Positions 32,861 to 35,237 of a DNA stretch of 64,000 nucleotides are shown here, piece by piece. Both the position numbers and the translations under genes were made by a program. The notes under the pieces were generated by a model. The model worked only from the letters and a program-made list of their open reading frames with translations. It had not been told where the DNA came from and did not search any database. Every line of letters starts with the position of its first letter. The first letter of the stretch is position 1. Origin of the DNA: Flavobacteriales bacterium (GTDB lineage: Bacteria; Bacteroidota; Bacteroidia; Palsa-965). The stretch covers positions 128,001-192,000 of the forward strand of contig JBEIPA010000006.1 of assembly GCA_040377305.1 (NCBI GenBank), in the 5' to 3' direction.

Positions 32861-33658
32861 TTACTGTTTGATTTCAACGCCATTCACAAACACGCGAACG
32901 ATTACCAGTTCTCCCCATCGGTTGTAAATGGTTTCTGTTCCGTGTCTTTGATCGTTGTGAAATTCGGTGACGCAGAACAGTTCTCCTGAATCGTAATACT
33001 GTTTGTCAACACCTTCTTTCTTATTATCCGCATAATTCGTTTCACGGACGAGAATTCCTTTGTCGTTCCATTCTTTCGTCACTCCTGTTCTGTAGTCTTC
33101 CAGAAAACTCGTTTCGCGTCGCACGCTTCCATTGTCGTAGTAGTCCAGTTCTTTTCCCGTGCGACGATCGTTTCGGCAAGTGGTCACTGAAAGAATGGCT
33201 CCGTCATTATCGTATGTGATCACAGCACCATTCACTTTTCCGTTGACAAAAGGTTTCACTTGCATAAGCTCACCCGTCTCATAGTACAGTTTCGCGGTGC
33301 CCACCGGCATTCCGTGTTCGAATTGGGTTTCCTGTAAAAGCGCTCCGTTCTCGTAATACACGCGCTGAATTCCATTGCGCATTCCGTTAGAGAAAGTGTC
33401 TACGCCCAACAATTCGCCATTCTCATGAAATGATTTTTGAACGCCGTTGATTTGTCCGTGATTATAAAATGTTTCTTCCCGCAACTGTCCGTTTTCGTAG
33501 TAGCAGCTTTCAACACCATGCATCTTCCCATCTACAAACGGTGTTGCACACGCAAGTTGTCCATTGTCGTAGTAGTTCTTCCTGATCGTGTCTTGTCCGA
33601 AACAAATTGCACTCACACTAAGTGCAGATAGCAGAAAGTTGAAGCGTGGCTTTTTCAT
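32861..33658 (-). CDS. MORN2-repeat (YwqK-like) exported protein
   Basis: Repeated YYENGQL..E..F..G...G units. ATG at 33658 is followed by a signal peptide. Confidence 0.85.
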   Translation of the reverse strand: MKKPRFNFLLSALSVSAICFGQDTIRKNYYDNGQLACATPFVDGKMHGVESCYYENGQLREETFYNHGQINGVQKSFHENGELLGVDTFSNGMRNGIQRVYYENGALLQETQFEHGMPVGTAKLYYETGELMQVKPFVNGKVNGAVITYDNDGAILSVTTCRNDRRTGKELDYYDNGSVRRETSFLEDYRTGVTKEWNDKGILVRETNYADNKKEGVDKQYYDSGELFCVTEFHNDQRHGTETIYNRWGELVIVRVFVNGVEIKQ

Positions 33659-33782
33659 ACAGCGGTTTTGCAAAATTGGGTTGCATGATTTGAGCCAAAG
33701 GCAACTACGTGAAACCAATTACTACGAAATGGGGAGCGGAAAAGCCGTAAATTCGCAGTCCGTTAGGTCCCGTAGTTCAATG

Positions 33783-34148
33783 CCCGCCCGGCCGAACGGT
33801 GACGAAAGAATGGCCCTGTAGTTCAATGGATAGAACGAAAGTTTCCTAAACTTTAAATCCAGGTTCGATTCCTGGTGGGGCTACAAATTTTTATTTGATG
33901 GCGTACTATGTTTATGTCGTGAGGAGCTTACACAAGGACTACGTTTATAAAGGACACTGCGAAGATTTAAGTAAACGGATTGAAGAACACAATTCTGGTA
34001 TGACGAAATCTTTGCGGCCTTTCATTCCAGTTGAATTGGCCTACTTCGAAAAATTTGATCTACTGAAAGAGGCGATCGCTCGTGAAAAGTATCTGAAGAC
34101 GTCTGCTGGCAGAAGATTTCTAAAGCCTAAATTGGCCGTTCGGACGGG
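33783..34148 (+). mobile_element. Inverted-repeat-bounded insertion in the tRNA D-loop carrying tRNA-Arg and a GIY-YIG nuclease
   Basis: Left end CCCG-CCCGGCCGAACGG, right end CCGTTCGGACGGG (12 of 13 complementary). Precise removal restores a canonical tRNA. Confidence 0.7.
33812..33883 (+). tRNA. tRNA-Arg(CCT), intact inner copy
   Basis: GGCCCTG-TA-GTTC-AATGGATA-GAAC-G-AAAGT-TTCCTAA-ACTTT-AAAT-CCAGG-TTCGATT-CCTGG-TGGGGCT-A forms a full cloverleaf with anticodon CCT and three G-U pairs in the acceptor stem. Confidence 0.92.
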
Positions 34149-34158
34149 GATAGAATAG
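33898..34158 (+). CDS. Stand-alone GIY-YIG nuclease (UPF0213/SLX1-like)
   Basis: YYVYVVRS..YVYKGHCEDL..RI.EHN.G...EAIAREKYLK..GR; stop codon lies inside the outer tRNA 3' half. Confidence 0.9.
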   Translation: MAYYVYVVRSLHKDYVYKGHCEDLSKRIEEHNSGMTKSLRPFIPVELAYFEKFDLLKEAIAREKYLKTSAGRRFLKPKLAVRTGIE

Positions 34159-34205
34159 AAGTTTCCTAAACTTTTGATACAGGTTCGATTCCCGTCGGGA
34201 CTACA

Positions 34206-34233
34206 GAAGGCTGCTTAGGCAGCCTTTATTTTT
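34206..34233 (+). terminator. Intrinsic terminator after the tRNA
   Basis: AAGGCTGC-TTAG-GCAGCCTT followed by TATTTTT. Confidence 0.85.
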
Positions 34234-34236
34234 GTA

Positions 34237-34356
34237 GACGGGAATCGGTTCGCTGCGCGAAAATCAGACGCTAAAAATGTCCACAGGACATTTTCTTTAC
34301 GCGTCTTCTCCCGTCGGGACTACAGAAGAAAAAGCGTCTCATATTGATGCGCTTTT
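34237..34356. repeat. tRNA-linked repeat: inverted T-arm copy, central hairpin, direct copy of the tRNA 3' end and a second hairpin
   Basis: GACGGGAATCG is the reverse complement of CGATTCCCGTC; AAAATGTCC-ACA-GGACATTTT hairpin; CCCGTCGGGACTACAGAAG repeated at about 34310-34328. Confidence 0.75.
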
Positions 34357-34396
34357 GTTATTTTGTACTAACGTGTCCCCAATAGCACATATAAAA

Positions 34397-35146
34397 TTGA
34401 ACCTCCGTTTCGCGATCGGCGTTGTTGTCCTTTGCCTGCTCCATGCCTGCTCTTCGTCACATGTACCGGAACGTACAAATGGATATATTGAAACAGATAG
34501 TTGCAGTATTTATTACGAATCAATCGGATGCGGTACTCCGATCATTGTTCTACATGGACTTGGTTTTGATCACACGTATTTCAGTCCGCACCTTGATACA
34601 TTGGCGTACAACTACCGTTTGATCTTCATCGACATGCGCGGGTCTGGAAAATCAATCGACAGTTCCCTCATTTCTTTACAGCAGGTTACATTGGATATTG
34701 AAGCTGTGAGGAAATCGCTTGGACTGGATTCGTTTGTATTGATGGGACATTCACTTGGCGGACTTGTGGCTATGAAATACGCAACTCTGTTTCCTGAAAA
34801 ACTAAGCGCGATGATTCTCGTTGCTCCCAATGCAGCCATCGCCAAACCGGATTCCATGGTTTCTCCGGCACCAGCAAAATCAAAAGGTAAACTCAAAGCC
34901 AACAATCCTCATTACGACAAGTCTTTTGAATCTTATAATCTCCTGCCTGAACTCTCGAAGGTTAGTACAGCAACTTTATTAATAAGTGCAGAACGAGATC
35001 CTATACCAGCCAGCGTTCATGTTCAGATAGCATCGACTATGAAAAACTGTACCCACATTACAGTAAAAAATTCCGGACATTTTGTTTTTGCTGATCAACC
35101 TGCTGAATTTTGTTTGGAGGTAAATAATTTTAGCCAAAACAAGTAA
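34397..35146 (+). CDS. Alpha/beta hydrolase, probable lipoprotein
   Basis: VLHGLG, DMRGSGKS, GHSLGG nucleophile elbow, SGHF; LHAC lipobox. Start uncertain (TTG at 34397 preferred). Confidence 0.8.
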   Translation: MNLRFAIGVVVLCLLHACSSSHVPERTNGYIETDSCSIYYESIGCGTPIIVLHGLGFDHTYFSPHLDTLAYNYRLIFIDMRGSGKSIDSSLISLQQVTLDIEAVRKSLGLDSFVLMGHSLGGLVAMKYATLFPEKLSAMILVAPNAAIAKPDSMVSPAPAKSKGKLKANNPHYDKSFESYNLLPELSKVSTATLLISAERDPIPASVHVQIASTMKNCTHITVKNSGHFVFADQPAEFCLEVNNFSQNK

Positions 35147-35177: not shown

Positions 35178-35237
35178 ACAGGTTCGATATTTGTCCGCTT
35201 GGGACTACAGAAGGCTGCTTAAGCAGCCTTTATTTTT
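35178..35237 (+). repeat. Degenerate direct repeat of the tRNA 3' end plus terminator
   Basis: ACAGGTTCGAT...GGGACTACAGAAGGCTGCTTAAGCAGCCTTTATTTTT matches 34179-34233. Confidence 0.85.

Follow-up and report, generated by a model that had tools for sequence, protein, structure and literature searches.

The tRNA-Arg(CCT) gene resident in this Flavobacteriales genome was split between G18 and G19 by a selfish-looking break-and-replace cassette, which brought a replacement tRNA together with a minimal GIY-YIG nuclease gene and most likely left the outer halves of the old gene as a non-functional scar. The nearest named protein matches come from Lacibacter and Daejeonella, making a Bacteroidota host likely. 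The locus lies in a 64,000-nucleotide stretch of contig JBEIPA010000006.1 (positions 128,001 to 192,000 of the forward strand), referred to below as the window. Comparisons with relatives carrying the intact gene, with homologous cassettes in other genomes, and with a second bracketed insert elsewhere in the same genome are presented below. Features of the locus are collected in Table 1.

Anatomy of the interrupted gene and its replacement

Table 1. Features of the interrupted tRNA-Arg(CCT) locus, in window positions.
Feature	Positions	Strand	Basis
-7-like promoter element TAAATTCG, likely the native promoter of the tRNA gene	33748..33755	+	pattern match
Resident tRNA-Arg(CCT), 5' piece, 17 nt, tRNA positions 1-18	33766..33782	+	halves joined equal the intact genes of G010 and G018
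Entire insert, 366 bp, between G18 and G19, without target duplication	33783..34148	+	comparison with intact relatives
Left arm of the family GC palindrome, CCCGCCC-X-GAAC type, X = GGCC	33783..33799	+	same arms elsewhere
Intact foreign-type tRNA-Arg(CCT), without encoded CCA	33812..33883	+	tRNA calls, sequence comparison
Stand-alone GIY-YIG nuclease ORF, 86 aa	33898..34158	+	PF01541; right arm and tRNA 3' half supply the last codons
Right palindrome arm; GGCC at 34134-34137 is the likely deletion joint	34132..34148	+	homolog comparison
Resident tRNA-Arg(CCT), 3' half, G19 to A73, with genus-typical A-C T-stem pair	34149..34203	+	comparison with sister genes
Intrinsic terminator-like hairpin	34206..34227	+	terminator scan

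When joined, the outer halves are identical at 72/72 positions to the intact tRNA-Arg(CCT) genes of two genomes of the same genus (G010 and G018), and the trailer of the 3' half shares 87% identity with G010 across 152 bp. These matches demonstrate that the outer gene is native, that the insertion is precise and that a target duplication is absent. The orthologous gene is uninterrupted in G010, G018, G013 and other relatives. Compared with the intact sister genes, the outer halves are free of decay, as expected after a recent event, though also compatible with selection. The original prediction had read the A-C mismatch of the outer T-stem as a hint of decay. Instead it is inherited, as intact sister-species genes carry the same pair; it occurs in 6/69 distinct intact tRNA-Arg(CCT) loci, all of the same genus (one is the unpublished genome G012, and the other five are independent).

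The placement of a -7-like element before the unit and a terminator hairpin after it was confirmed. The element follows what we take to be the Bacteroidota-type -7 consensus, and the pattern TAnnTT[TC]G is enriched no more than 40 nt upstream of comparable genes, being present at 14 of the 20 orthologous genes checked and at 11/37 tRNA calls (contig C7 left out), with approximately 0.015 expected per gene. Within 34186-34345, a sequence complementary to the T-arm sits after the terminator and the final 20 nt of the window tRNA are repeated at 34309-34328. A diverged tRNA end with its terminator is repeated near 35178 (35178-35237). Trailers like these two regions are also found in G010, G013, G014 and G024, and resemble tRNA-linked repeats.

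Contigs from sequencing run X1 show zero differences to the window, with two contigs meeting at 34163, 15 nt beyond the right junction. In run X2, a near-identical strain covers the left junction and the right flank and leaves the ORF uncovered, a gap that carries no weight at a depth of 3-5. The joints seen in X1, X4 and X5 are short palindrome-plugged copies of other organisms, and a search of viral contigs for the left junction gave 0 matches.

The insert carries a foreign, intact replacement tRNA, separated from the left arm by a 12-nt spacer. This inner tRNA-Arg(CCT) has 12 differences from the outer one and a single difference from a gene of G028, which belongs to another family. It is the sole CCT tRNA among the 52 tRNAs called in the genome, where a TCT isoacceptor of tRNA-Arg is present on contig C24 and AGG makes up 3.8% of the Arg codons of long ORFs. 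Because an intact CCT tRNA sits within the insert, there is no selection to rescue the outer tRNA. Run X2 also contains a tRNA identical to the inner one in another contig, with other flanks and followed by an apparent GIY-YIG start, an arrangement consistent with the tRNA and nuclease travelling together.

The GIY-YIG gene, its stop codon and tRNA processing

The ORF of the insert encodes a GIY-YIG domain, matching PF01541 (E 1.8e-11, 44.6 bits against a cut-off of 22.6) over residues 3-69 of its 86 aa. There is no further Pfam match, so a separate C-terminal DNA-binding domain is absent. GIY-YIG homologs are mostly 79-85 aa long. The match to the UPF0213 structure 1YWL is weak (E 0.013), and an NCBIfam search with the ORF returned a sub-threshold match only.

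As originally proposed, the ORF reads through the right inverted repeat and takes GAA-TAG of the host tRNA 3' half as its last codon and stop. This stop is atypical and is not conserved. The comparison covered 46 distinct homolog ORFs lying close to tRNA-Arg sequence. Of these, 24 end inside the next tRNA copy, at its TAG of positions 8-10, and 16 terminate before reaching that copy; two lack a neighbouring copy, and only four use GAA-TAG. In one homologous locus (L101), the same nine bases as at window 34129-34137 are followed by the in-frame TAG of a spare tRNA copy, and the GGCC at the right joint of the window is also the start point of the downstream spare tRNA copy in homologs. The shared frame and context of this GGCC suggest that the read-through to GAA-TAG is likely a deletion product, a spare 5' piece and left arm having been lost between two GGCC words.

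The ATG of the ORF lies 14 nt past the end of the inner tRNA, and the corresponding gap is 1-19 nt in 14 of 19 homolog loci having an intact tRNA at most 300 nt upstream. A simple scan found no terminator between the inner tRNA and the ORF, and both RNase P RNA and RNase Z are encoded in the genome. Given one promoter, one terminator, these two processing activities and the 14-nt gap, it is likely that the nuclease is co-transcribed with the tRNA and that its mRNA is freed by tRNA 3' processing. On these grounds we retain, as an inference, the earlier suggestion that RNase P and 3' processing release the nuclease mRNA and couple its expression to tRNA maturation; the functional outer tRNA attached to that suggestion is not retained.

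The idea of nuclease-tRNA coupling was already proposed for phage T4 SegB. In the available portion of that report, SegB is a GIY-YIG homing endonuclease whose free-standing gene lies in a cluster of tRNA genes; two controls on its expression were proposed, namely that it is transcribed as part of the tRNA precursor and that the message is cut as tRNA-Arg matures, this processing limiting expression (PMC2330249). Both systems place a GIY-YIG gene among tRNA genes, its mRNA being part of a tRNA precursor in SegB and probably so in the window, and SegB is described as spreading with neighbouring tRNA genes (PMC2330249, available portion), which for the window protein we propose by analogy. According to the same portion, SegB binds DNA through a C-terminal NUMOD3 part and recognises a T-loop motif in phage DNA (PMC2330249), whereas the window protein consists of an 86-aa catalytic domain alone and is chromosomal, beside a palindrome-plugged displaced tRNA copy. 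By this analogy, the cassette may work like SegB minus the DNA-binding domain.

In homologous loci, including L017, L120, L129 and L142, the commonest palindrome sites are G18/G19 and C56/G57, the two halves of the tRNA elbow. One idea is that a plug blocking RNase P could protect the ORF stop where that stop sits inside the next tRNA copy.

A mobile GC palindrome in and outside tRNA genes

The arms bounding the insert are the two ends of a mobile GC palindrome, and the cassettes that carry it form a family of loci in many genomes. The original prediction described a 13-bp GC-rich stem emerging exactly from the D-loop. While the two repeats are indeed complementary, the 13-bp register (33787-33799 with 34136-34148) forms 12/13 pairs with one G-A mismatch and begins 4 nt into the insert; an alternative register that does begin at the D-loop spans 8 bp with 7 pairs.

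Elsewhere in this genome (G000), about nine further sites carry closed palindromes of this family, mostly away from tRNAs, and the palindrome is also found in T-loops and intergenic DNA. The closed copies off tRNA-Arg genes are at C11:39829, C17:220773, C17:27389, C19:92756, C19:56666, C22:26223, C39:24186, C60:139629 and C60:140427. In L150 and in one X5 contig, arms of the GGCC subtype seen in the window enclose a loop of 39-58 nt. Across the family the arms covary (ACTG/CAGT, ATCC/GGAT, ACCG/CGGT, GCCG/CGGC). The covariation expected of the inverted repeats among homologs is thus present, but it is a property of the mobile palindrome and extends to a site on contig C28 that is not a tRNA. 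Since the same palindromes lie mostly outside tRNAs, their covariation argues for a hairpin element rather than a tRNA clamp.

A metagenome scan for the right junction yielded 48 loci, which with the loci from genome searches gave 67 distinct D-loop junctions outside this genome; these loci are related, the scan pattern required an intact anticodon arm, and the nearest 5' piece often doubles as the last codons of the ORF. The 5' piece is visible at 59/67 junctions, whose inserts are closed palindromes or short tandems measuring 20-122 nt, and enclosure of a tRNA was seen at 0/59 of these other junctions. A script assigned the 67 to classes with a complete 3' half (26), a second palindrome further along the tRNA, often in the T-loop (20), truncation (19) or a contig end (2), although two of the 26 "complete" junctions proved on inspection to be one second insert and one truncation. 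The acceptor stem is paired at 6/7 positions or more in 9/22 complete copies with a 5' piece, compared to 69/69 intact genes, a difference that partly reflects overlap of the spare copies with the ORF end rather than drift.

At 5/52 other loci, the cassette is flanked by an outermost 5' piece and a final 3' half that still form 6-7/7 acceptor pairs, but in all five the right arm pairs locally with a partner of its own. An intact tRNA preceded by the left arm alone was found in 1/400 other genomes of the phylum, plus G001. Intact and plugged copies within one locus are often nearly identical, and a simple sequence-specific homing model therefore falls short. Three loci (L103, L104 and L109) were chance matches of the class search and were excluded from the element counts.

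Several related arrangements were also observed. On one strand of G036 contig C3, a left arm with an intact tRNA (52863, L005) and a GIY-YIG gene with a plugged tRNA (103335, L021) are 50 kb apart, as would result from a larger insertion into one cassette. In this genome, a second GIY-YIG gene at C21:1-450 (L190), with 42% identity, is flanked on both sides by copies of a tRNA 3' portion that resembles tRNA-Met(CAT) on C33, the downstream copy carrying a closed palindrome in its T-loop. In G210 (L170), a long tandem array of short repeats lies between an intact tRNA-Arg(CCT) and a partial copy of the 3' half.

A new finding here is that this genome holds a second replacement insert bracketed by palindrome arms, in a small-RNA-like locus that is not a tRNA. 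At C28 36139-36252 on the minus strand (L189), a 114-bp insert with matched palindrome arms contains a diverged intact copy of its own target and no nuclease gene. The target is an unannotated hairpin-plus-terminator unit following a LuxR-type regulator gene. A syntenic empty site is found in G015, target duplication is absent, and the stems of both C28 copies and of the G015 empty site covary. The target has no Rfam match above the gathering score. A similar target is found in 1/26 other genomes of the genus, and other matches to the C28 motif in 34 genomes of the order lacked the hairpin-terminator context. A further partial left arm lies just upstream of the insert. The window and C28 targets both read CAATG^G(A/T)TAG. 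Because bracketing with a replacement copy occurs here at a site that is not a tRNA, it is explained as a DNA-level product for which no tRNA biology is needed.

Fate of the outer halves and relation to known systems

The insert breaks the tRNA within the G18/G19 elbow, adjoining A20. In the sources as available, the elbow recognised by RNase P, RNase Z and the ribosome is built from G18, G19 and C56 (PMC4810234), and A20 is the main ArgRS determinant (PMC9976931). Folds were predicted with ViennaRNA for a 476-nt precursor, in which the outer acceptor stem has P of about 0.75 and the distal seven pairs of the inverted repeat have P 0.36-0.54. The D-loop-proximal pairs are predicted at P of 0.06 or less because the right arm (34143-34151) pairs instead with the T-arm strand (34188-34196; P 0.75-0.99). 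This hairpin is stronger than 496/500 arm shuffles. Covariation between the right-arm base and its T-stem partner was not evident (A/T 13, A/C 4, G/T 3, G/C 1), and an anti-T-arm pairing as a selected family trait was rejected for this reason. In the predicted dimer of the processed pieces, with the inner tRNA removed, the inverted repeat is unused. Forcing the outer cloverleaf together with the inverted repeat in a linker model costs 7.2-7.5 kcal/mol, compared to 3.3 for the uninterrupted tRNA. For that control tRNA, too, ViennaRNA fails to recover the D- and T-stems (P 0.02 and 0.01), so zero D- and T-stem probabilities were rejected as evidence and the forced-fold difference alone counts, modestly. 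Short closed D-loop palindromes are predicted to be fold-compatible, with mean D-stem and T-stem probabilities of 0.84 and 0.77 over 21 copies. The expectation that the outer cloverleaf could still fold is thus borne out in part: in prediction, a secondary cloverleaf is kept with short closed palindromes and the precursor can form the acceptor stem, but the inverted repeats do not contribute to the dimer.

A functional outer tRNA, either split or protein-spliced, had been envisaged, and the evidence goes against both forms. The arms are a generic mobile palindrome, the other junctions do not share the arrangement, the stop codon is unconserved, and the inner CCT tRNA is intact. Splicing by protein would require the GIY-YIG protein or another endonuclease to cut at the exon edges and an RtcB or Rnl2-type ligase to join them, a new kind of bacterial tRNA intron. 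Despite precise exon boundaries and the presence on contig C7 of two RtcB genes and one PF09414 (Rnl2-type) RNA ligase, we regard this as highly improbable. The BHB-type (archaeal-type) splicing endonuclease PF01974 was not found in the 99.99%-complete genome, a bulge-helix-bulge at the exon junction is absent from the sequence and folds, and no component was found in the genome that would cut precisely at the two exon boundaries. The ligases are located next to a tRNA array on a different contig, RtcB is common (10/14 control genomes), and an intron would have no reason to bring its own tRNA copy. The cleavage sites of RNase P and RNase Z are distant from the junction, and these enzymes leave ends other than those used by RtcB. 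As far as the available text states, RtcB ligation starts from cyclic- or 3'-phosphate and 5'-OH ends, and bacterial tRNA introns are self-splicing group I introns (PMC3400036). For the group I ribozyme core, an Rfam scan of 33600-34400 gave tRNA-type matches only, and the insert is filled by the tRNA and the ORF. We also consider it improbable that the pieces act as a non-covalent two-piece tRNA or tRNA-like RNA, held together by the acceptor stem, D-stem and inverted repeat and serving as a charged tRNA, an anticodon-nuclease decoy or a stabilising mRNA tail. The intact halves, the predicted outer acceptor stem, the covarying arms, the predicted secondary cloverleaf of D-loop palindromes and the 6-7 acceptor pairs in the five bracketed loci would all accord with such an RNA. 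Nevertheless, the covariation belongs to the mobile palindrome and recurs at C28, the break falls inside the elbow beside A20, the processed pieces are predicted to leave the inverted repeat unused, roughly 265 nt of mRNA would dangle from the D-loop, and the long-range arrangement is unmatched at the other junctions, with its left side in 1/400 other phylum genomes.

Another reading, which is compatible with the outer halves being a scar, concerns how the arm-bounded form arose. The whole unit of left arm, replacement gene, nuclease and right arm might move in one step as a tiny TIR transposon, with the closed 20-120 nt palindromes as its non-autonomous derivatives. We consider this rather unlikely. 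Matched arms with precise edges at both the window and C28, a C28 cargo that is again a diverged intact target copy with an empty site in G015, the common target motif and a palindrome loop length that varies freely are what a one-step unit would produce. Against this, both arms lack inner partners in no other of the 52 tRNA loci, the right-joint GGCC context seen in L101 points to deletion from the common three-part array, and palindromes within one locus are usually of one subtype anyway. Stated in full, this would be an autonomous, very small transposon in which two arms enclose a replacement copy of the RNA gene destroyed and a bare GIY-YIG as the only enzyme. Its insertion site would be CAATG^G(A/T)TAG, entered without duplication, within the loops of structured RNA genes that include but are not limited to tRNAs. 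The C28 insert would be a sister lacking the nuclease, in a small RNA gene not yet annotated, and tRNA maturation would release and meter the transposon's own mRNA. Judged from sequence, we think it rather unlikely that this full form applies.

Under the preferred reading of a break-and-replace cassette, a single transcript would run from the native promoter to the terminator, and RNase P and RNase Z would excise the inner tRNA, which would then decode. Two by-products would stay unligated: a 5' leftover of 46 nt, and the nuclease mRNA tailed by a tRNA half. In the modelled fold, the right arm would pair with the 3' half itself, at its T-arm and acceptor strand, rather than clamp the 5' piece. 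The GGCC-GGCC deletion likely took the spare 5' piece that provides the stop in most homologs, giving the read-through to GAA-TAG. By analogy to SegB, the nuclease likely spreads the cassette via putative cutting of tRNA-gene DNA, with the palindrome plugging the displaced copy.

The locus was also compared with other known systems. Archaeal split tRNAs (Nanoarchaeum, Aeropyrum, Staphylothermus) are likewise made in two pieces with flanking GC-rich complementary arms of approximately 13-14 bp; in the text available, they are joined through a bulge-helix-bulge cut by the archaeal splicing endonuclease and derive from the cell's sole gene for that tRNA (PMC3218864). In the window, complementary leader and trailer arms are present (12/13 or 7/8 pairs), although as a generic mobile palindrome, while the bulge-helix-bulge is lacking, the enzyme was not found, and an intact tRNA-Arg(CCT) lies within the insert in addition to the TCT isoacceptor elsewhere. 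We conclude that, by the criteria tested, the window locus is not a split tRNA. Contig C7 (86000-103000, L191) contains about 15 tRNA genes, the two RtcB genes, the PF09414 ligase and a release-factor-H-like ORF beside one RtcB, and looks like an integrated element with RNA repair genes.

REP/REPIN sequences with RAYT and MITEs are, in the partial sources consulted, short GC-rich palindromes that are similarly dispersed and clustered around a small nuclease-type gene. In those sources, REP/RAYT pairs (REPtrons) use an HUH Y1 transposase, whereas the enzyme linked to the window palindrome is a GIY-YIG. Compared with the MITEs and IS elements described there, the terminal inverted repeats here are imperfect and target duplication is absent at the two sites with an empty-site comparison. 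The main targets of the window family are tRNA loops, which also sets it apart from REP/RAYT and MITEs as they are covered in these sources. tRNA-targeting integrative elements insert in a tRNA gene and restore its function by element-borne sequence. The cassette differs from these in having no integrase, no att duplication, a whole foreign tRNA and a break in the D-loop. In the titles and abstracts of the mainly open-access literature searched, no description was found of a cassette family that combines a replacement tRNA and a minimal GIY-YIG with a GC palindrome placed in the tRNA elbow.

If real, a split or enzyme-spliced tRNA would be the first in bacteria; the window case is best explained without it. 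To the cassette family, this locus adds that the arms can bracket a whole cargo and that the break-and-replace pattern extends to a non-tRNA target in the same genome. The family could explain what small UPF0213-like GIY-YIG proteins do, and could be a source of dispersed GC palindromes.
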